Shown one piece after another: positions 6,140 to 41,318 of a stretch of DNA of 64,000 nucleotides. The first letter of the stretch is position 1. Every line of letters starts with the position of its first letter. The position numbers were made by a program, and so were the translations under genes. The DNA comes from Patescibacteria group bacterium (lineage in GTDB: Bacteria > Patescibacteriota > Patescibacteriia > Patescibacteriales > JBAZCA01), in assembly GCA_041661505.1 (NCBI GenBank), contig JBAZUF010000004.1, positions 4,861-68,860 of the forward strand, read 5' to 3'. The notes below the pieces were generated by a model. The model had not been told where the DNA came from, made no database searches, and saw only the letters and a list, made by a program, of their open reading frames with translations.

Positions 6140-6238
6140 ATGCTTAACCTGGCAAGAAAAATCGTATTGATTGTCGTAGAGGTAGTAGTCATGGTAATGA
6201 CTCCTTTTCGCGTTTGCCGGGTTAGAGTAAGAGCATAA
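6140..6238 (+). CDS. Val/Ile/Leu-rich leader peptide MLNLARKIVLIVVEVVVMVMTPFRVCRVRVRA
   Basis: 32 codons with 10 Val, 2 Ile and 3 Leu, including the run IVLIVVEVVVMV. The mRNA is nearly leaderless, and the 3' part of the ORF forms an antiterminator arm. Confidence 0.7.
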   Translation: MLNLARKIVLIVVEVVVMVMTPFRVCRVRVRA

Positions 6239-6287
6239 AAAGAAAAAAAGCTAAGATGAACCCCCGGCAAACAAGCCGGGTTTTTTT
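6212..6287 (+). terminator. attenuator: antiterminator 6212-6221:6263-6272; terminator cccggc-aaacaa-gccggg plus T7
   Basis: gtttgccggg is the exact reverse complement of cccggcaaac. The terminator stem is 6263-6268/6275-6280, followed by ttttttt at 6281-6287. Confidence 0.7.
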
Positions 6288-9641: not shown

Positions 9642-11261
9642 ATGAAACTGCCATCAGAAAAATTAAAAAAGGGAATTGCCACTATGCCGCACCGGGCGCT
9701 CTTGCGGGCTGACGGCTTGCGCGGCGCGGATTTTAAAAAGCCTTTTATCGGCGTGGCTGATTCTTATAACGATATTATTCCCGGGCACATTCATCTGCGC
9801 GAGCTGTCAGAAGAGGTGAAGCGGGGAATCCGCGATGCCGGCGGCGTGCCGTTTGAGTGGGGCGTACCGGGGGTTTGCGACGGCATTGCCATGCACGTCG
9901 AAATGCGCCTGTCACTGCCTAGCCGGGAGCATATCGCCGACAATATAGAAATCATGGTGCTGTCTCATAGCCTGGACGGCTGGGTTGGCGTAACTAACTG
10001 CGACAAAATCACGCCCGGAATGCTAATGGCGGCCGGGAGGCTTAATCTTCCGGCGGCAATTTTAACCGGCGGGCCGATGAAGGCGGGAATCGTGAATGGA
10101 AAAAAAATGGACGTGATTTCCGATTTTGAGGCGGTAGGGCAAATTGAAGCCGGAAAATTATCCAAAAAAGAGGCTTTGAAAATTGAATGCGAATCCTGCC
10201 CGGGCGCCGGGAGCTGCGCCGGGCTTTTTACCGCTAATTCTATGGCGGCCATGACCGAAGTTTTAGGCATGTCAGTAACGGGCTCTGCCACAACGCTCGC
10301 CCTGGATCCGAAAAAAAAGAAACAAGCTTATGAAACCGGCCGGCGCATTGTGGAACTGGTAAAAAGGAACATTAAACCAAAAGATATAATGACCAAAAAC
10401 GCGTTTTTAAACGCAATAAGAGTGGACATGGCTATCGGCGGCTCGACCAATACGGCCCTGCATTTGCCGGCCATTGCCAAAGAATGCGGAATTAAGCTGG
10501 AGCTCGGGCTATTTGACCAGGCCTCCCGGCAAACTCCCAATATTTGCCATATTCGGCCGGCCGGGCCTTATGTTATGGAAGAACTGGATCAGGCCGGAGG
10601 CATCCCGGCGGTGTTAAATCGCCTGAAAAAATACTTAAAGCCAGCCATAACTATTAATAAAAAGAATATTTTAAAAATTGCCGAAGAAGGAAGGGTGCGG
10701 AATGAAAAAGTAATAAGGCCGCTTTCGGACCCGTTCTATAAAGAAGGCGGCATCGCGGTTTTAAAAGGGAATTTAGCGCGGACTTCGGTAGTAAAACAGA
10801 CCGCGGTCGAACCGGAGATGCTGAAAATTACCGGGCCGGCCAAAGTTTTTTCCGGCGAGCAGGCAATTTTAAAAGCCGTGGCCCGGAAAAAAATTAAAGA
10901 CGGCGACATTATCGTAATTAATTTTATGGGTCCGGCCGGCGCGCCGGGCATGCCGGAAATGCTTACGCCCACGGCCGCCATATCCGGCGCCGGATTAAAG
11001 TGCGCGCTGATTACCGACGGCCGTTTTTCCGGCGGAACTCGGGGGGCGGCTATCGGCCATATTGAACCCGAAGCTTTTCATGGCGGAGTAATCGGCATTA
11101 TAAAAGACGGCGACCTGATTGAGATTGATATTCCCAAAAGAAAATTAAATGTGGCGCTAAGCCGCGCGGAAATTAAAAAGAGGAAGAAGAATTTAAAAAT
11201 TCCTAAAAGAAAAATGACCAAGATGCTGGAAAAATACCGAAAGGATAACAAAAAAGCCTGA
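9642..11261 (+). CDS. ilvD: dihydroxy-acid dehydratase
   Basis: IlvD/Edd family (CDKITPGMLMAA, CPGAGSCAGLFTANSM, ITDGRFSGGT). The start at MKLPSEKL avoids overlap with ilvE; 9603 is an alternative. Confidence 0.9.
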   Translation: MKLPSEKLKKGIATMPHRALLRADGLRGADFKKPFIGVADSYNDIIPGHIHLRELSEEVKRGIRDAGGVPFEWGVPGVCDGIAMHVEMRLSLPSREHIADNIEIMVLSHSLDGWVGVTNCDKITPGMLMAAGRLNLPAAILTGGPMKAGIVNGKKMDVISDFEAVGQIEAGKLSKKEALKIECESCPGAGSCAGLFTANSMAAMTEVLGMSVTGSATTLALDPKKKKQAYETGRRIVELVKRNIKPKDIMTKNAFLNAIRVDMAIGGSTNTALHLPAIAKECGIKLELGLFDQASRQTPNICHIRPAGPYVMEELDQAGGIPAVLNRLKKYLKPAITINKKNILKIAEEGRVRNEKVIRPLSDPFYKEGGIAVLKGNLARTSVVKQTAVEPEMLKITGPAKVFSGEQAILKAVARKKIKDGDIIVINFMGPAGAPGMPEMLTPTAAISGAGLKCALITDGRFSGGTRGAAIGHIEPEAFHGGVIGIIKDGDLIEIDIPKRKLNVALSRAEIKKRKKNLKIPKRKMTKMLEKYRKDNKKA

Positions 11262-31768: not shown

Positions 31769-32672
31769 TTAATTGGTGATTAGCCGTCGGACCACCTCGG
31801 TTCCGATTCCCTCTTTGGTAAAGAACTCTAAAAGGACGGAATGAGGCAAGCGGCCGTCAATCAAATGCACCCTTGCCGACGCCGGAGTTTATCGCCTCCA
31901 CGGCACTCTCGATTTTTGGGCGCATGCCTCCGGTGATTACGCCTTCCTGGATTAAGCCTTCCACCTCGTCAGTCCACAGGGTGCTTATTACCGAATCTTC
32001 ATCATTTTCATCTCCAGGAACGCGCAGAAGGCCAGGAACGTCGGAGATAAATACGAGCTTCGCGGCCTTAAGGGTTTTTGCTACAAAGAACGCCACTTCA
32101 TCGGCATTCATGTTGCAGAACTGGCCACACTCGAAATATCCGAGAGGGGTGATTATAGGGATAATATTCAGTCCCAGCATCTGTTCAATTTGATTAATAT
32201 CCGCGCGTATCGGCTCGCCCACCAATCCTAAGTCTGCGGGCATTCCCGATTCGTCAAGCATTTTTTTCTTTACTGCCGTAAAAGTATCCTCACCGTACAA
32301 CTGCCAGGCTCGGCCGCCGCGTTCGTAGATTTTGCTGACCAATCTGCGATTAATCTTTTTCAGCACTTCCTGCACTACGTCCAGAGTGGGCTGGTCAGTG
32401 TAACGCAGACCGTTTACTTTCCTGGTTACTATCCCTCTCTCTTCCGAAAGCTTGTTGATTTCCGGTCCGCCCCCGTGTACGAGAATGGGTTTTATACCCA
32501 GTATCTGCAAGACTGCAAGATCTGAAAGCAGGTCGTCCTCATGTTCAGGATCTTCAATTACACTGCCGCCTGACTTGAATACCATAATTTGGTTTTTAAA
32601 AGCCTTGGCATAGGAAAGCGTTCCCAGCACTACTTGAATTTTTTCCAACCCTTCTTTAATGCGCGCGTTCAT
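31769..32672 (-). pseudogene. argB: acetylglutamate kinase with a 1-nt frameshift near the C-terminus
   Basis: The ORF 31857..32672 stops at ...SGVGKGAFD*. Skipping nt 31871 restores the canonical tail [26 protein letters not shown]..., which ends at 31769. Confidence 0.75.
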
Positions 32673-34570: not shown

Positions 34571-34581
34571 AATTTTGATTT

Positions 34582-35304
34582 ATGAAAGAAAAACCATCGG
34601 CCTATGACGACGCCGAGATAATTTCCGTCTCTGACCAGAATTTAGAAATACATAATCGGGCTTTTCTAGACTTAAACCTCAAGGAAATTATCCCGCCTAA
34701 TGCCGTCGTCGTAAATATGGGAAGCGGAGTGGAAAAGCTCTTCGAAAAAGAATTATTGAAAGAGCGGCCGGACATTAACTTCGTTTCGGTAGATTTCTCT
34801 TTGGGGCTGGAAGACTATACGAAAGGCGAAGCAGAGAAAGAATCTAAAAATAATCAGTGGACGGTTATATCTCCTACCAGTCCCCACGACAAAACCGCGA
34901 TATACGCGAAGAAGCCTTTGGGCCAGGAATTCTTAGATGATATCGAGGAAGAAAAGCTAAGCGAGCTTACCGAGAGCGAAAAAAGGAGGCACTGGAAAAA
35001 AAGATACCAGTCGTTAAAAGAGGTTCCTGGTTCAGTCGCCATGAAAGCGCCAAAATTGGCATTGGCCGACAATTCCGCGGATACAGTTGTTGATTTCATG
35101 GGCGCCTATCAATACCTTAAAGACGACCAGGCGAGAAAAGAATATTTGGAAGAAATCCGCCGGATATTAAAGCCAGGCGGCGCGTTATATATTTACGCGG
35201 ACAGCCTCTTTCCGGAGACTCTTGCCGCCCAGATCGAGGGATTGCAAGTTGACGAAGAAAGGGTCAGGAGCGGTAAGCGGGTGTTAAAAATATCAAAAGC
35301 TTAG
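34582..35304 (+). CDS. putative class I SAM-dependent methyltransferase
   Basis: VVNMGSGVEK (motif I-like) and ILKPGGALYIY. Substrate unknown. Confidence 0.5.
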   Translation: MKEKPSAYDDAEIISVSDQNLEIHNRAFLDLNLKEIIPPNAVVVNMGSGVEKLFEKELLKERPDINFVSVDFSLGLEDYTKGEAEKESKNNQWTVISPTSPHDKTAIYAKKPLGQEFLDDIEEEKLSELTESEKRRHWKKRYQSLKEVPGSVAMKAPKLALADNSADTVVDFMGAYQYLKDDQARKEYLEEIRRILKPGGALYIYADSLFPETLAAQIEGLQVDEERVRSGKRVLKISKA

Positions 35305-35355
35305 CCAATCGAGGCGTGAAAGAAATCCCGGTTAAGATTATTATCCGCGCATTTA

Positions 35356-35384
35356 TTGACAAGTTCTAGCCTATCCGGTAATAT
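35356..35384 (+). promoter_or_regulatory. promoter TTGACA-17-TAATAT
   Basis: Perfect -35 hexamer. The ATG at 35391 is exactly 7 nt after the -10 hexamer, giving leaderless geometry. Confidence 0.6.
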
Positions 35385-35390
35385 ATAAAC

Positions 35391-35477
35391 ATGAGAAAAT
35401 TTACCGTTTCCACAATTACCATGAAGATGACCGGCATTATTATGACCGGGAATTTAATGTGGACGGTAAAGCTATAA
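35391..35477 (+). CDS. Thr/Met/Ile-rich leader peptide MRKFTVSTITMKMTGIIMTGNLMWTVKL
   Basis: 28 codons with 6 Thr, 4 internal Met and 3 Ile. The 3' end of the ORF is one arm of an antiterminator. Confidence 0.6.
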   Translation: MRKFTVSTITMKMTGIIMTGNLMWTVKL

Positions 35478-35531
35478 AGTCAAGTTAGCGAATTGAAATA
35501 AGCAGCCGTCCACACCCGGACGGCATTTTTA
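35460..35531 (+). terminator. attenuator: tggacgg(35460-35466):ccgtcca(35506-35512) versus terminator gccgtcc/ggacggc plus aTTTTT
   Basis: Terminator stem 35505-35511/35518-35524 with T tract 35525-35530. The alternative 7-bp pairing uses the W-T-V codons of the leader ORF. Confidence 0.65.
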
Positions 35532-35655
35532 ATATTTTTTCCGGCTGATTGCTGCTTTAAATATTTCGCAGGCATTATTTTATTTTTCAGCTATTATTTA
35601 TTGGAAAACAGAGTTATGTCTTACTGCGAAAAATATCAGACACAAGGAGGTTAGC

Positions 35656-35844
35656 ATGGAAGAGAATGACGGAATTGTTTGTTTTTGCCGCGTATGCGGT
35701 AAAAAAATGGTAGTTGAGTCAAGGGGCGGCAATCTTGACGCCGCCGCCCTAAAAAACATGCTTTCCTGCTCCGATGCTTGTCGCGAGCGGGAACGCGAGC
35801 AATTAATCTCCGCCCCCAAGAGCATTGTTTTTCAGGGGATATAA
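35656..35844 (+). CDS. small Zn-ribbon-like protein, 62 aa
   Basis: AAGGAGG lies 5 nt upstream of the ATG. Contains CFCRVCG...CSDAC. Confidence 0.5.
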   Translation: MEENDGIVCFCRVCGKKMVVESRGGNLDAAALKNMLSCSDACREREREQLISAPKSIVFQGI

Positions 35845-35855
35845 AAGGAGATATT

Positions 35856-36032
35856 ATGTTCCTTCAAAAGTCCTCCGTTCCGCGGGAGAAAAAAAAGGTA
35901 ACCGTTCTAAACTGCGGAATTTGCGGAAAGGAAGTCAAGCTGGTGGTCGCGAGAGACTATCCAGAAGACCTGATCCGCAAAATGGCGTCCCCGGTTTGCA
36001 AGGAATGCAAAATAGAACTGGGGATAGGATAG
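35856..36032 (+). CDS. small Zn-ribbon-like protein, 58 aa
   Basis: AAGGAG upstream. Contains CGICG...CKEC (two CxxC pairs). Confidence 0.5.
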   Translation: MFLQKSSVPREKKKVTVLNCGICGKEVKLVVARDYPEDLIRKMASPVCKECKIELGIG

Positions 36033-36167
36033 GGGAGAAAGACAAAGAAGTTTGTCTTTCTCCCCTCCTCAATTTAATTTTTATCTTTAAAGATAAGGCT
36101 TGGGTTGAGGAGGATTCTAAATACTAAAGTAGTCAGTGATCTTTTTATAAACGAGGGGGAGAAAAAA

Positions 36168-36542
36168 ATGAGGCTTATGTGGCGGGCAGTAATAGGCAGG
36201 TGTTCGACTCCGGATTGCGGGCTGGATTATGAGCTAGTACCCACGAGCTGGAAAGAAAGAGGGAAAGCAAAGAGAGGGGAATTGCCTTGCCCTGACTGTA
36301 AGTGTTACGAAGCAGTCGTTCTGGCCATTGGTAATTGTATTTCCCAAGGCGGTAGGGCAATAACTAAGGCCGGGGAGATTGTATCAACAACTCTATTGGT
36401 GCCGTGCAAGAATTGTTTAAGAGACTTTCTTTACACGGCCTCCAGCGAGGAAGATGCATTAAGAGCTAAACACGGGGCTGAAATTTGTGTCTTATGCCAG
36501 CAATTAGAAAGGGGAAAAAATGGCAAAACCTGCATGGGGTGA
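36168..36542 (+). CDS. Cys-rich hypothetical protein, 124 aa
   Basis: GAGGGGGAG upstream. Contains several CxxC-type pairs (CSTPDC, CPDCKC, CKNC, CVLC). Confidence 0.5.
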   Translation: MRLMWRAVIGRCSTPDCGLDYELVPTSWKERGKAKRGELPCPDCKCYEAVVLAIGNCISQGGRAITKAGEIVSTTLLVPCKNCLRDFLYTASSEEDALRAKHGAEICVLCQQLERGKNGKTCMG

Positions 36543-36885
36543 TCTCTATCTGAAGCCAGGTGAGGAATATCCAATCGGTCCTCAACCCGGTGATCTCCTG
36601 ATAAACCAAGGACCTGTAATTAAAGGTGTTTGTTCGAAATGCCGCCGTTGGTTTGAGGAGTCGGTGGAAAATTTCGAGATCGTGATGAAGACGAGGAGAT
36701 GCTTTACCTGCCGCGGCAGCGACTGGGGGAGTATTACTTCCCGGCTCATTTTGCACCAAGAGGTGTTGTCTGATGGTTATGTATCAGAAACACCACTTGA
36801 AGATCTTTGGGCGCTGGAGAAACCCCCAACCTCCGTACCGGCAGGAGTTAAAGATTTGGCCGATATCGGGTTCTGGCAAGATTAA
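36520..36885 (+). CDS. hypothetical protein with a CxxC...CxxC motif, 121 aa
   Basis: AAAGGGG upstream. Overlaps the previous ORF by 23 nt. Contains CSKC...CFTC. Confidence 0.5.
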   Translation: MAKPAWGDLYLKPGEEYPIGPQPGDLLINQGPVIKGVCSKCRRWFEESVENFEIVMKTRRCFTCRGSDWGSITSRLILHQEVLSDGYVSETPLEDLWALEKPPTSVPAGVKDLADIGFWQD

Positions 36886-37038
36886 AACAGTCAGGATTAG
36901 GGGGCATCCGACCTATCCGATCGGAGGAGATCAAGGACTGTCTTAAAGAGGCCCTTAAAAAGGGTCAAGGCGCAACACTAAGCGCGTCAGAAGGGGGAGA
37001 AAAAAATTTCTCCCCCTGCTCCACTTCAAAAAAATCAT

Positions 37039-37066
37039 TTGACATAAAATATAAAGCGCATAAATT
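37039..37066 (+). promoter_or_regulatory. promoter TTGACA-16-TAAATT upstream of cimA
   Basis: Perfect -35 hexamer. The implied 5' UTR is very short and has no SD. Confidence 0.45.
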
Positions 37067-37081
37067 AATTAACTTTTTAAT

Positions 37082-38656
37082 ATGCCAAAAGGAGTAAAGA
37101 TTTACGATACAACCTTGCGCGACGGGACCCAGGCGGAGAATTTCAGCCTGACGGTTTCCGATAAAATAAAGATCGCCTTAAAGCTTGATGATTTAGGCCT
37201 GCATTATATTGAAGGCGGCTGGCCGGGTTCTAACCCTAAGGACGCGGCTTTTTTTAATGAAATAAAAAAGCACGAATTGAAAAACGCGGTTATTGTTGCT
37301 TTTGGCTCGACTCATCATCCGGCGGTTTTAGCCGAAGATGACTTGAACCTGAAAGCCTTGGCCGATTCCGGCGCGAAAGCCGTAACAATTTTTGGCAAAG
37401 CCTGGACCGTGCAGGTAAAAGAAGCTTTGAATATCCCGCTGGAAAAAAATTTGGAAATAATTTTAGAAAGCTTAAGAATTTTGAGGCCGCGGGTTAAAGA
37501 GCTTTTTTTTGACGCCGAGCATTTTTTTGACGGTTATAAGGCGGATTCGGAATATGCTTTGGCGGTTTTATCTAGGGCCTTAGAAGGCGGGGCTGATTGT
37601 TTGGTGTTATGCGATACTAACGGCGGAAGCATGCCAAGCGATATCCGGCAAATTATCACTAAAGTCAAAGAAAGGTTTCCTGCGGCGGAATTAGGCATCC
37701 ATGCCCATAACGATTCCGAGCTGGCGGTAGCCAACACCATGACGGCGGTTAAGCTCGGAGCAGTCCAGGTTCAGGGAACGATTAACGGGATTGGCGAACG
37801 CTGCGGAAACGCGAATTTATGCTCAATAATTCCCAATCTGATTTTAAAAAAGGGTGTTATGTGCCTGCCGAAAGAAAATTTAAAAAAATTATCGGCCGCG
37901 AGCCGCTTTGTCAGCGAATTGGCGAATTTAAATCCTAACCGCTATCAGCCGTATGTCGGACAAAGCGCTTTTGCCCATAAGGGCGGAGTGCACATTAACG
38001 CCGCCTTGAAAAATCCGATGACTTATGAGCATATTGATCCGGCTTTGGTCGGGAACATCCGGCGCATTTTAGTTTCCGATCTTTCCGGCCGCTCGGCTAT
38101 AGCGAAAAAATTGGAAGACTTTGGCATTAATTTATCCAAGACTGATCCGGCGGCCTTGAAAATTTTAAATGAAGTAAAGGAATTGGAAAACCACGGCTAT
38201 CAGTTTGAAGCGGCCGAAGCCAGTTTTGAGCTTTTGGCCAGCCGCCTGCTTGGGAAAAACAAAAATTATTTCCAGTTGGTTGATTACCGGGTGACTGACT
38301 GCAAGGCCGGAGAAGGGGAGGCGCCGTCCATCGAGGCAACAGTAAGGATTAAAGTAAAAGATCGCGAAGAGCATAGCACGGCCAAAGGCGTCGGCCCGGT
38401 TGATGCCCTAAACAATGCTTTAAGAAAGTCTTTGGAAAAAATTTATCCCCAGCTAAACGGCATGAAGCTTACGGATTATAAGGTCCGGGTATTGCCGACG
38501 AATGACGGTACGGCGGCCCGGGTAAGGGTATTAATTGAATCCTGCGACGATAAAGACTACTGGGGCACGGTCGGGGTATCAGTTGATATATTAGAGGCAA
38601 GCTGGATGGCTTTAGTCGATAGTTTTAATTACAAATTGTATAAAGAAGAAAAATAA
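37082..38656 (+). CDS. cimA: (R)-citramalate synthase
   Basis: IYDTTLRDGTQAE, the YIEGGWPGSNPKD signature of the CimA branch, HAHNDSELAVANT, and a C-terminal regulatory domain GVGPVDALNNAL...VDILEASWMAL. Confidence 0.8.
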   Translation: MPKGVKIYDTTLRDGTQAENFSLTVSDKIKIALKLDDLGLHYIEGGWPGSNPKDAAFFNEIKKHELKNAVIVAFGSTHHPAVLAEDDLNLKALADSGAKAVTIFGKAWTVQVKEALNIPLEKNLEIILESLRILRPRVKELFFDAEHFFDGYKADSEYALAVLSRALEGGADCLVLCDTNGGSMPSDIRQIITKVKERFPAAELGIHAHNDSELAVANTMTAVKLGAVQVQGTINGIGERCGNANLCSIIPNLILKKGVMCLPKENLKKLSAASRFVSELANLNPNRYQPYVGQSAFAHKGGVHINAALKNPMTYEHIDPALVGNIRRILVSDLSGRSAIAKKLEDFGINLSKTDPAALKILNEVKELENHGYQFEAAEASFELLASRLLGKNKNYFQLVDYRVTDCKAGEGEAPSIEATVRIKVKDREEHSTAKGVGPVDALNNALRKSLEKIYPQLNGMKLTDYKVRVLPTNDGTAARVRVLIESCDDKDYWGTVGVSVDILEASWMALVDSFNYKLYKEEK

Positions 38657-38746: not shown

Positions 38747-39169
38747 ATGGCTGATAATAATATAATCAACGACCAAAATAAGCCGGCTGATAAAGAACCG
38801 ACTCTTTATGATGTTTTAGACGCCATAAATGTTTTTGCGACAAAAACTGATGAGCGGCTTGAGAATATAGAATCAACCATGGTGACTAAAGATTTTTTGG
38901 AAAAACGGTTGACTCCGATAGAATTAACCATGGTAACTAAAGATTTCTTGGAAAAACGGTTAGCGCCCATTGAGGCCAATATGGTAACCCGGGATTATCT
39001 TGATGATAAGCTTGGCGATTTAAAAGGCGATTTGATTGTAACCATGAGAAAAGAAGACGCCAAATTAAGAATTTTGATAGAGATTCTTCGAGGGAAAAGC
39101 GTTATATCCGAAGACGAAGAAAAACGGATTTTATCCATGGAACCGTTTCCTAAGCTATATGTTAGCTAA
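38747..39169 (+). CDS. coiled-coil protein with a 17-aa tandem repeat (TMVTKDFLEKRLxPIEx); paralog of 713..1141
   Basis: 140-aa ORF. Shares the N-terminal KEPTxxDxxxAI and ATxxDxxxENIxS blocks with the 713 protein. Confidence 0.7.
   Translation: MADNNIINDQNKPADKEPTLYDVLDAINVFATKTDERLENIESTMVTKDFLEKRLTPIELTMVTKDFLEKRLAPIEANMVTRDYLDDKLGDLKGDLIVTMRKEDAKLRILIEILRGKSVISEDEEKRILSMEPFPKLYVS
38876..39028 (+). repeat. 51-bp in-frame tandem repeat, 3 units (the third diverged)
   Basis: accatggtgactaaagat... at 38876 and accatggtaactaaagat... at 38927. Confidence 0.85.
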
Positions 39170-39190: not shown

Positions 39191-39219
39191 TTGACATTTG
39201 GTAGGCTCTTCGCTACAAT
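39191..39219 (+). promoter_or_regulatory. promoter TTGACA-17-TACAAT
   Basis: Perfect -35 hexamer and a 5/6 match at -10. The mini-ORF ATG at 39229 is 9 nt after the -10 hexamer. Confidence 0.6.
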
Positions 39220-39228
39220 GGAATCAAT

Positions 39229-39309
39229 ATGAATTTAAACCAAGTCAAAATTGGATCCCCCATTTCCGGCGGTTGTGGCGGTAGTGGCTCATGCATTGAG
39301 CAATTTTGA
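39229..39309 (+). CDS. Gly/Ser/Cys-rich leader peptide MNLNQVKIGSPISGGCGGSGSCIEQF
   Basis: 26 codons with 6 Gly, 4 Ser and 2 Cys in the block SGGCGGSGSC. The stop codon lies inside an antiterminator arm. Confidence 0.55.
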   Translation: MNLNQVKIGSPISGGCGGSGSCIEQF

Positions 39310-39398
39310 GGATGGTTTAAAAAGAAGAACATGCATAGGTTAGCAACAAAGCTAAAATAAGACACAAGCCATCCTCAAAGGGATGGCTTTAGCGTTTT
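39307..39398 (+). terminator. attenuator: tgaggatgg(39307-39315):ccatcctca(39369-39377) versus terminator agccatcc/ggatggct plus a T-rich tail
   Basis: The 9-bp and 8-bp perfect stems share nt 39369-39374. The tail ttagcgtttt is at 39389-39398. Confidence 0.6.
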
Positions 39399-39448: not shown

Positions 39449-39856
39449 ATGAATCAATTTGATTTTACGGAAGTCGTTGCCGAGGGCGCGGAAAGCGGGA
39501 ATCAAAACGGTCTAATCCGCGGACTCTGCATAAGAGGAGAACATCGCGGAGAGATCATGTGTTTCAGCTTTCCTCAGCCTGTGCAGGGCAAGTTTTTTTG
39601 GACCGTAGAACGAAGTGGCGAGAAGATTTTGTCCTCGGAAAAATGGGAGATTATCCGGAAGGGAGGTGATGAAATGAAAGACTGTTGTCGTGAGACGACG
39701 GACAGTGCGGGTAAAAATAAACATGTTGCTTGCCTGCACTGCGGGGAGAGATGGGAAAAATTCGGCGATAAATGGCGTAAAGAGATACCCCCGGCAAATT
39801 TTAAGCTGGAGGGTGAAATTTACGTCTACGAAGACCACCCCGCCGTACCATCCTGA
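39449..39856 (+). CDS. Cys-rich hypothetical protein, 135 aa
   Basis: GGGAGG lies 8 nt upstream of the ATG. Contains DCC...CLHCG. Sits between the attenuator and cysK. Confidence 0.5.
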   Translation: MNQFDFTEVVAEGAESGNQNGLIRGLCIRGEHRGEIMCFSFPQPVQGKFFWTVERSGEKILSSEKWEIIRKGGDEMKDCCRETTDSAGKNKHVACLHCGERWEKFGDKWRKEIPPANFKLEGEIYVYEDHPAVPS

Positions 39857-40958: not shown

Positions 40959-41132
40959 ATGTCCCAAAAAAACGAAAGGAGCGTTATTATCGGAACTTGT
41001 TCTATATGCGGATTCCCGATAATTGAAGGCGACAAGCCTGACAAACACTCAAACCCGACTACTTGCCGAATAAATATTCTTTCGGAGCGTCGACGGGATG
41101 TTGAGAAATTGTCATGCAAGGGGCAGAAATAA
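40959..41132 (+). CDS. small Zn-ribbon-like protein, 57 aa
   Basis: AAAGGAGG upstream. Contains CSICG...C...C. Too short to appear in the ORF track. Confidence 0.45.
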   Translation: MSQKNERSVIIGTCSICGFPIIEGDKPDKHSNPTTCRINILSERRRDVEKLSCKGQK

Positions 41133-41177
41133 AAAAATTTCAAACAGGACGGCATAGGAAGCCGCCGAGGAGGGAGT

Positions 41178-41318
41178 ATGTCAATCGCCGGGTACAGGGT
41201 GATTAAGGAGGGCCAGCCTAAGGGAGAGGTAGACAATACCCCTAAAGAGGGAACCTCCCTGGAGGACGTGGACGCGAAAGAGCCCTCTGATGACGACAAC
41301 AATGAGGACTGGAGCTAA
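41178..41318 (+). CDS. small acidic protein, 46 aa
   Basis: GAGGAGGGA upstream. C-terminal tail EPSDDDNNEDWS. Confidence 0.35.
   Translation: MSIAGYRVIKEGQPKGEVDNTPKEGTSLEDVDAKEPSDDDNNEDWS

Follow-up and report, generated by a model that had tools for sequence, protein, structure and literature searches.

Candidate four-cysteine zinc-finger genes in a putative turnover slot between an amino-acid attenuator and cimA in a genome labelled Patescibacteria

The region described here lies in a 64,000-nucleotide stretch of contig JBAZUF010000004.1 (assembly GCA_041661505.1; hereafter the window), from a metagenome-assembled genome (MAG) labelled "Patescibacteria group bacterium", and comprises four small consecutive open reading frames (ORF1 to ORF4) situated between a leader-peptide attenuator and cimA, the gene for citramalate synthase (Table 1). 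The initial annotation, made from the nucleotide sequence, had presented these ORFs as a tightly packed cluster encoding small, cysteine-rich, zinc-ribbon-like proteins, each preceded by a strong Shine-Dalgarno (SD) site. All four frames were found on the forward strand with the proposed lengths (62, 58, 124 and 121 aa), the SD sites are present 4–7 nt from the ATG in every case, and the packing is as described within each pair (11 nt separate ORF1 from ORF2, and ORF3 and ORF4 share 23 nt), ORF2 and ORF3 being 135 nt apart, with two long abutting hairpins (A and B) occupying the space between them. The structures said to bracket the cluster, the terminator of the attenuator and hairpin C, are equally present. 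The supposed GC enrichment relative to the flanks proved not to be significant, the computed profile giving 0.47 for the cluster against 0.45 ± 0.033 for equal-sized windows, 24.5% of which are as GC-rich or richer. In the NCBI annotation, ORF1, ORF2 and ORF4 appear as hypothetical proteins; the ORF4 product is acidic (isoelectric point of 4.9), and the four proteins end in ...VFQGI, ...ELGIG, ...KTCMG and ...GFWQD, respectively.

Cysteine makes up 6.6% of the cluster residues, against approximately 1.1–1.3% in core genes, and the CxxC pairs noted at the outset are not the product of chance. Among the 221 six-frame ORFs of 50–150 aa in the window, only three (ORF2, ORF3 and ORF4, which are adjacent) contain at least two CxxC motifs, and residue shuffling gives P values of 0.01, 0.04 and 0.0025, respectively, for the pairs in these three proteins. 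Five four-cysteine (C4) modules can be aligned on their cysteines with an almost constant spacing (x23 for ORF1, x24 for ORF2, twice x23 for ORF3 and x19 for ORF4), the first knuckles of ORF1 (CRVCG) and ORF2 (CGICG) being of the CxxCG type. The zinc-ribbon-like label is upheld in the sense of small Cys4 zinc-finger-type proteins, and the ORF products would bind zinc. In the low-confidence AlphaFold2 (AF2) model of ORF2, for which the five modules were used as a small alignment, a predicted beta-hairpin carries the first CxxC and is followed by a helix, the second CxxC being located where the terminal helix begins, an arrangement that we take to be treble-clef-like. The Foldseek comparison that had been proposed, run against the PDB, returned no significant structural neighbour, the top match being the CR3 domain of HPV E7 (E = 1.4).

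Strain variation was analysed using contigs L090, L093 and L094, which originate from other samples, are 96–98% identical to the window from tyrA to ORF2 and all end at 35983–35998; contigs L001–L003, being 100% identical to the window, were uninformative for dN/dS. The substitutions in ORF1 (3/3) and in ORF2 (2/2) are all synonymous, an outcome with a probability of approximately 6e-4 under neutrality, and in the same comparison the methyltransferase (MTase) gene has a pN/pS of approximately 0.09. The MTase gene, tyrA and intergenic DNA diverge by 3–5% in the variant strain, and the non-coding spacer has changed as well; overall, this strain differs by 2–5% up to position 35906 and is identical thereafter, a switch which may correspond to a recombination boundary or to an ORF2-to-ORF4 segment recently shared between strains. 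In their synonymous-codon scores (D), ORF1 (−0.05) and ORF2 (−0.07) lie within the core-gene range and, because of this native codon usage and of the five synonymous substitutions out of five, both are well supported as genes under purifying selection. The initial annotation had named a lack of conservation of the ORFs as an argument against its reading; such a lack is seen at a genus-like distance (nothing similar exists in the relative described below) and is contradicted at strain level for ORF1 and ORF2.

The scores of ORF3 (−0.23) and ORF4 (−0.28) fall below the core minimum (−0.135) and thus outside the core range, and the argument for their being coding would be based on their well-formed C4 modules, SD sites and translationally coupled layout. 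An alternative arises at this point, namely that some or all of the ORFs, and especially ORF3 and ORF4, are unexpressed chance or decaying frames in a long structured leader preceding cimA. It would explain why the frame log-likelihood and synonymous-codon scores of ORF3 and ORF4 are within the off-frame range, why these two proteins match only themselves in the databases, why the block cannot be aligned to the relative, and why ORF3 was left unannotated by NCBI and gave a poor single-sequence AF2 model. What makes us regard it as quite unlikely is that three adjacent ORFs, alone in 64 kb, have at least two CxxC motifs, that the modules have a common spacing, that each ORF is equipped with a well-placed SD site and ATG in an SD-poor genome, that ORF1 and ORF2 change only synonymously, and that no competing ORF on either strand outscores the cluster ORFs.

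The location of the cluster downstream of an amino-acid attenuator was correctly recognised in the initial annotation, since the leader, the alternative pairings and the terminator are all there. Region 2 of the leader can pair either with region 1 or with the 5' arm of the terminator (forming the antiterminator), the masked folds giving −19.0 kcal/mol for the 2:3 duplex, −15.9 for 3:4 and −16.3 for 1:2. When the 5' part is masked, as it would be by an early-stalled ribosome, the antiterminator (2:3) is obtained, and it is the terminator (3:4) that forms when the mask is extended to include the stop codon; the fold of the attenuator has a z of −4.0. The variant strain has a single leader-peptide substitution (F4Y), stems unchanged except at position 35401 (the end of region 1), and five changes in the 17-nt spacer 35479–35495. 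The attenuator is like those of the enterobacterial thr, ilv and leu operons in its short Thr/Ile/Met-rich ORF with a stop codon abutting region 2, in its mutually exclusive antiterminator and terminator with a U-tract, and in having an Ile-synthesis gene, cimA, downstream. It is unlike them in the distance of only 6 nt between the −10 element and the leader ATG (the leader may be leaderless or SD-less), in its mixed Thr/Met/Ile codons, in a host labelled Patescibacteria, and in the four unrelated small genes between terminator and cimA: the genes next to the attenuator are ORF1 to ORF4, and cimA follows 1.55 kb downstream. Because no forward-strand promoter-like site is present between the terminator and ORF1, or anywhere in 35444–35829, ORF1 and ORF2 are probably transcribed only on attenuator read-through, and the ORFs would appear to be co-transcribed with the attenuator.

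Leader-peptide attenuation is a regular feature of this genome, since two further leader attenuators exist in the window, all three having the same promoter-then-leader layout. One of them precedes a PALP+LeuA_dimer (IlvA-like) gene followed by ilvE, ilvD, ilvB and ilvC, and the other lies upstream of an ORF at 39449 and of cysK.

The closest CimA (78% identical) is encoded on a 20-kb contig, L085, which is syntenic with the window throughout, in the order asd, AK (aspartokinase), DHQS, deoC, pheA, tyrA, slot, cimA, cysK, serA, serC, serB, L21, recR, ybaB and dnaB. The L085 flanks are 74–79% identical to the window at the DNA level, and the cysK-side attenuator is kept there (approximately 10405–10640, with leader MELTISKTRLSICGGSGSGGSGCESILRMV), its region 2 (GAGGATGG) being conserved and its arm changes preserving the pairing. 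Window positions 34571–37094 (the MTase gene, the leader and ORF1 to ORF4) have no DNA or protein similarity to L085 7158–8841. Since the L085 gap holds different SD-led, Cys-containing orphans, the tyrA–cimA gap can be regarded, on this comparison, as a turnover slot. Other slots also differ between the two sequences (argB, the ORFs at 38747, 40959 and 41178, and the C-terminal half of the one at 39449). In L085, cimA comes immediately after the attenuator, and the small Cys-containing ORFs are found before the attenuator and show no sequence relationship to ORF1 to ORF4; a conserved functional link between attenuators and zinc proteins is not supported by this arrangement. With an Ile/Thr leader and a terminator directly upstream of cimA in L085, this gene is the probable ancestral target of the attenuator. 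In the window, cimA has a promoter-like site immediately upstream, to which nothing similar was detected in L085. Additional relatives were sought in several ways: scanning GTDB genomes with CimA yielded no close genome, the relatives having at most 61% identity and coming from many phyla, a TyrA-alignment search gave only relatives of 47–54% lacking synteny, and JGI metagenome contigs searched with the MTase gave nothing. The next-best CimA homologues (67–69%) include Syntrophobacteraceae, and those of 67–68% occur in a Desulfobacterota-type aspartokinase–cimA context and were uninformative.

Hairpins A and B form a region with a fold z of −4.6, in which an Rfam scan returned only hairpin-like miRNA noise and Logan contigs are interrupted at the midpoint of palindrome B; they may serve in termination, in processing or in recombination. 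Exact 16-mer direct repeats with copies less than 2 kb apart occur in two places of the window only, in a 33-nt tandem repeat at 788–870 and as the 16-nt sequence AGGGGGAGAAAAAAAT; shuffled windows average 0.065 such pairs. The AGGGGGAGAAAAAAAT repeat and the non-native codon usage of the two genes it flanks suggest that an 838-bp ORF3–ORF4 unit was inserted into a pre-existing hairpin upstream of cimA, insertion being the direction that we infer for the event.

These features can also be read as those of a small mobile or selfish cassette (e.g. a toxin-antitoxin-like or anti-defence pair), whose cargo would be the whole cluster or at least ORF3 and ORF4, integrated site-specifically into the intergenic hairpin and playing no role in amino-acid metabolism. 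In favour of it, one copy of the exact repeat bracketing ORF3 and ORF4 is the arm and loop of hairpin C, the codon usage of the pair is foreign-like, its two-gene architecture is overlapping, and L085 has unrelated SD-led small ORFs in the same slot, with several other intergenic slots differing between the two sequences. We nevertheless consider this explanation unlikely, if worth keeping in view, given that there is no integrase or transposase within ±10 kb and no PADLOC, PHROGs or Pfam match, that neither phage records nor viral contigs contain a copy and the window does not contain a second one, that ORF1 and ORF2 have native codon usage, and that the hairpins, by inspection only, are without attC-type features. 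The selfish cassette listed among the candidate roles in the initial annotation finds some support for ORF3 and ORF4 (from their non-native codons and flanking repeat) and none of that kind for ORF1 and ORF2.

An integron attC site is an imperfect, bulged hairpin with RYYYAAC...GTTRRRY. The locus is like integron or other promoterless cassettes in its small orphan ORFs, in a hairpin following each pair, in the repeat flanking ORF3–ORF4 and in slot turnover; it is unlike integron cassettes in its perfect palindromes free of attC features, in the lack of a nearby integrase and in having only one or two units. An integron gene cassette was rejected on the palindromes and the missing integrase (±10 kb), together with the attC core not being found by eye at 36025–36120 (a non-exhaustive inspection).

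That no family could be recognised for these ORFs, as the initial annotation had stated, was borne out by the Foldseek comparison and by all the profile searches. Pfam, NCBIfam, PHROGs and PADLOC gave only noise for the cluster ORFs (the top PHROG match, to a Lar-like family, having a non-significant E = 0.025), and a PDB profile search was equally non-significant (RpoP, E = 0.04; L24e, 0.16; uS14, 0.62; YacG, 1lv3 and 4tma, 0.7–1.1). The large homology searches covered ORF3 and ORF4 only: against 5.8 billion clustered proteins both returned self-matches only, and an exhaustive HMMER phmmer search of ORF3 alone against 1.84 billion representatives returned itself and two artefacts (P0123 and P0124), which were rejected as homologues for being spurious, translated tandem repeats. 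In clusters at 90% identity each of the four proteins stands alone, except for a longer-start version of ORF3; no copy of the cluster ORFs occurs in phage genomes and viral contigs, nor is there a second copy of the block within the window. Pairwise paralogy tests among the small ORFs, and against the slot ORFs of L085, gave nothing significant, and the similarity originally noted to the ORFs at 40959 and 39449 goes no further than the CxxCG motif that they have in common, none of the alignments being significant.

Several known families were tried and rejected: the LysW/ArgW carriers (no NCBIfam or Pfam match, and C-termini lacking EDWGE, which we take to be the acceptor tail of LysW); zinc-ribbon ribosomal proteins (bL31, bL32, bL33, bL36, uS14 and bS18) and DksA/TraR, with noise matches only (among the ribosomal ones L34e, E = 0.9 and 0.19 in the Pfam/NCBIfam searches); YacG (no Pfam match, and the PDB values given above); and anti-phage defence or phage protein families (no significant match in PADLOC, PHROGs or phage genomes). 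Compared with the YacG/FCS treble clef, ORF1 and ORF2 are alike in the pattern CxxCGK ... (F/S/V)C(S/K)xxC and in the predicted fold, where the knuckle belongs to a beta-hairpin and the second Cys pair is found at the start of a helix, and they differ in escaping Pfam and PDB profile detection, in a longer spacer and in the absence of the C-terminal gyrase-binding tail of YacG. A related explanation would be that the ORFs belong to a known zinc-ribbon family (C+ ribosomal paralogues, DksA/TraR, YacG or LysW), tied to translation, transcription or amino-acid synthesis, from which they have diverged. The C4 spacing and protein size are compatible with it, as are the YacG-like CxxCGK...C(S/K)xxC pattern, the amino-acid biosynthesis setting (with argB nearby) and the ...GFWQD end of ORF4, which we take to be faintly LysW-tail-like; with nothing but noise at E ≤ 1 in Pfam and NCBIfam, non-significant PDB profile and Foldseek scores, and no EDWGE tail, we hold it to be very improbable.

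The nearest parallel in kind is the haloarchaeal CPxCG family, including Brz, which consists of small one-domain prokaryotic zinc-finger micro-proteins (PMC2253796; PMC10117724). Like these, the cluster proteins are of about 60 aa or made of tandem modules, have two Cys pairs (with a CxxCG-type first knuckle in ORF1 and ORF2), are encoded in intergenic space beside a metabolic gene, and are mostly lineage-specific and absent from domain databases. Unlike these, they share no sequence homology with the family, belong to a bacterial host of the candidate phyla radiation (CPR), have a longer inter-knuckle spacer (x19–24), are known from sequence alone and are placed between an attenuator and its gene. 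By analogy with Brz (PMC2253796), binding to nucleic acid or to a protein partner would be the likeliest activity of the ORF products and, because standalone C4 zinc modules of this size usually act in this way, the products would most plausibly serve as small regulators or adaptors made when Thr, Ile or Met is limiting. The ORFs are best described as unclassified additions to an already known class, the small C4 zinc-finger proteins.

The interpretation that we favour, and to which we give a somewhat better than even chance, is that ORF1 to ORF4 are lineage-specific accessory Cys4 zinc-finger genes residing in a turnover slot between the attenuator and cimA. They would be protein-coding accessory genes, with five CxxC-x19-24-CxxC modules (a beta-hairpin knuckle and a helix by prediction), that fit no family described so far and are confined to a single species-level lineage of an uncultured "Patescibacteria" MAG. 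Their place would be between a Thr/Ile/Met ribosome-stalling attenuator and cimA, a gene that in L085 would be directly controlled by an attenuator of the same design. ORF1 and ORF2, translationally coupled, resident and under selection, would be the first cistrons on attenuator read-through because the slot lies between attenuator and cimA. ORF3 and ORF4 would represent a later foreign insertion into the hairpin just upstream of cimA (the empty site before the insertion would read TTATAAACG-AGGGGGAGAAAAAAAT-TTCTCCCCC, without the two genes), and cimA would now have its own promoter-like site.

A number of observations weigh against this interpretation. The structural models are poor (the ORF2 prediction is weak, with a pLDDT of 66.7, and the single-sequence ORF3 model is unusable, at 39.7), ORF3 has no annotation from the NCBI pipeline (PGAP), and the codon statistics of ORF3 and ORF4 are indistinguishable from those of off-frame or foreign sequence. 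The substitution test reaches ORF1 and ORF2 only, given where the variant contigs end. No homologue was found in any other genome, hence the ORFs are without deep conservation, and the attenuators of the window and L085 have no detectable shared sequence. Hairpin A may halt read-through before ORF3 and, with a single relative, insertion in the window cannot be separated from loss in L085.

A difference in translation signals runs through the same region. Of the 48 core genes in the window, only six have even a 4-nt SD site; such a site precedes ORF1 to ORF4, as well as those at 39449, 40959 and 41178, without exception, and in two cases it is the full AAGGAGGT. In L085, core genes are likewise without SD sites, except for a weak AGGA before recR, and five of the seven small slot ORFs have them. 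A literature search on SD usage in Patescibacteria found nothing relevant. Gene-caller ascertainment may contribute to this split; chance is nevertheless an improbable source of perfect 8-mer SD sites placed at the right distance from ORFs with Cys motifs, and the split agrees with these genes being foreign or being expressed by a route of their own. A broader view, which we consider distinctly improbable, combines two translation-initiation regimes with the turnover of miniature cassettes, SD-led micro-protein genes being exchanged by hairpin insertion. Core biosynthetic genes would then be SD-less, the gaps between them, frequently those just behind attenuators, would be repeatedly colonised by SD-led and mostly Cys-containing genes, and the 16-nt repeat around ORF3 and ORF4 would be the att-like scar of a site-specific insertion.

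Table 1. Features of the cluster, of the attenuators and of the equivalent region in the relative (positions refer to the window unless L085 is indicated; C4, four-cysteine; SD, Shine-Dalgarno).
Feature	Position	Strand	Description
Sigma-70-like promoter	35356-35384	+	TTGACA-17-TAATAT; 10/12 consensus matches; -10 ends 6 nt before leader ATG
Leader peptide ORF	35391-35477	+	MRKFTVSTITMKMTGIIMTGNLMWTVKL; 28 codons: 6 Thr, 5 Met, 3 Ile
Leader region 1	~35400-35414	+	
Leader region 2	~35458-35470	+	UGUGGACGG; abuts stop codon
Intrinsic terminator	35505-35540 (hairpin 35505-35524)	+	GCCGTCC-ACACCC-GGACGGC + T-rich tail
ORF1	35656-35844	+	62 aa; putative module CxCxxCGK-x23-CxxxC; SD AAGGAGGT
ORF2	35856-36032	+	58 aa; putative module CxxCGK-x24-CxxC; SD AAGGAG directly after ORF1 stop codon
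Hairpin A	36031-36066	+	16-bp perfect stem
Hairpin B	36064-36113	+	25-nt arms, palindrome; abuts hairpin A
Direct repeat, left copy	36154-36169	+	AGGGGGAGAAAAAAAT, exact, 16 nt; ORF3 SD and first two start-codon bases
ORF3	36168-36542	+	124 aa; putative C4 modules Cx4C-x23-CxxC and CxxC-x23-CxxC; SD GAGGGGGAG
ORF4	36520-36885	+	121 aa; putative C4 module CxxC-x19-CxxC; SD AAAGGGG
Hairpin C	36989-37020	+	GGGGGAGAAA-AAAA-TTTCTCCCCC
Direct repeat, right copy	36992-37007	+	AGGGGGAGAAAAAAAT; 5' arm and loop of hairpin C
Promoter-like site	37039-37066	+	TTGACA-16-TAAATT; immediately upstream of cimA
cimA	37082-38656	+	citramalate synthase
Second attenuator	6140-6280		Val-rich leader MLNLARKIVLIVVEVVVMVMTPFRVCRVRVRA; terminator CCCGGC-AAACAA-GCCGGG + T7; alternative pairing; fold z = -4.3
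Third attenuator	39191-39389 (leader/attenuator 39229-39389)		promoter TTGACA-17-TACAAT; Cys/Gly/Ser-rich leader MNLNQVKIGSPISGGCGGSGSCIEQF; hairpin
L085 slot orphan		-	91 aa
L085 slot orphan			155 aa; CxxxxCxxC; SD AAGGAG
L085 slot orphan			80 aa; CxC...CxxC; SD GAGGAG
L085 attenuator upstream of cimA			promoter; Ile/Thr-rich leader MIITAKNIITTIIIPQMRDEIVLA; terminator ending ~36 nt before cimA

The surroundings of the cluster have features of their own. Positions 1339–44264 form a large amino-acid biosynthesis supercluster, with leuA, leuCD and leuB, the IlvA-like gene, ilvE, ilvD, ilvB and ilvC, an EPSP synthase gene, asd and an aspartokinase gene, an archaeal-type DHQS gene, a DeoC-like gene, argB, pheA, tyrA-CM, cimA, cysK, serA, serC and serB, which is unusual for CPR. 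The argB gene (acetylglutamate kinase, TIGR00761, E = 2e-61; 31857–32672, reverse strand) is missing from L085. A 140-aa ORF at 38747–39169, which has no SD site, is native in its codon usage and contains an internal repeat (two copies of MVTKDFLEKRL and a variant of it), is also absent from L085, where the cysK leader region directly follows cimA. In the ORF at 39449–39856, conservation with L085 is limited to the first 70 aa (51% identity, motif MNQFDF...RGEH...FWTVER), after which the L085 ORF ends; the C-terminal half (CC...CLHCG) has non-native codon usage and may have been added recently, by fusion or by extension of the 3' end. Two SD-led mini-ORFs precede serA at 40959–41318, the first (at 40959) of 57 aa, containing CSICG and preceded by an 11-nt motif (AAGGAGGTTAG) that also precedes ORF1, and the second of 46 aa, very acidic and ending in ...NEDWS; the L085 slot before serA has an unrelated acidic ORF of 40 aa. 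Finally, the tandem repeat at 788–870 is perfect, has approximately 2.5 copies, and lies within a 142-aa ORF (713–1141) with weak apolipoprotein-like coiled-coil matches.

If the improbable cassette-turnover view were true, the locus would exemplify an undescribed CPR gene-cassette system carrying zinc micro-proteins under amino-acid-starvation control. In any case, the SD-less core genes and SD-led orphans of two related genomes are a testable clue to a foreign origin or a special expression route. Small zinc-finger micro-proteins are under-annotated, and four unclassified candidate examples are added here from a CPR genome. The locus illustrates how accessory mini-genes would come to occupy the space that separates an attenuator from its target gene, which may rewire both, the orphans inheriting starvation control and cimA gaining a promoter of its own. 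This does not overturn current understanding; its value is that of a documented case and of a lead for metatranscriptomics.

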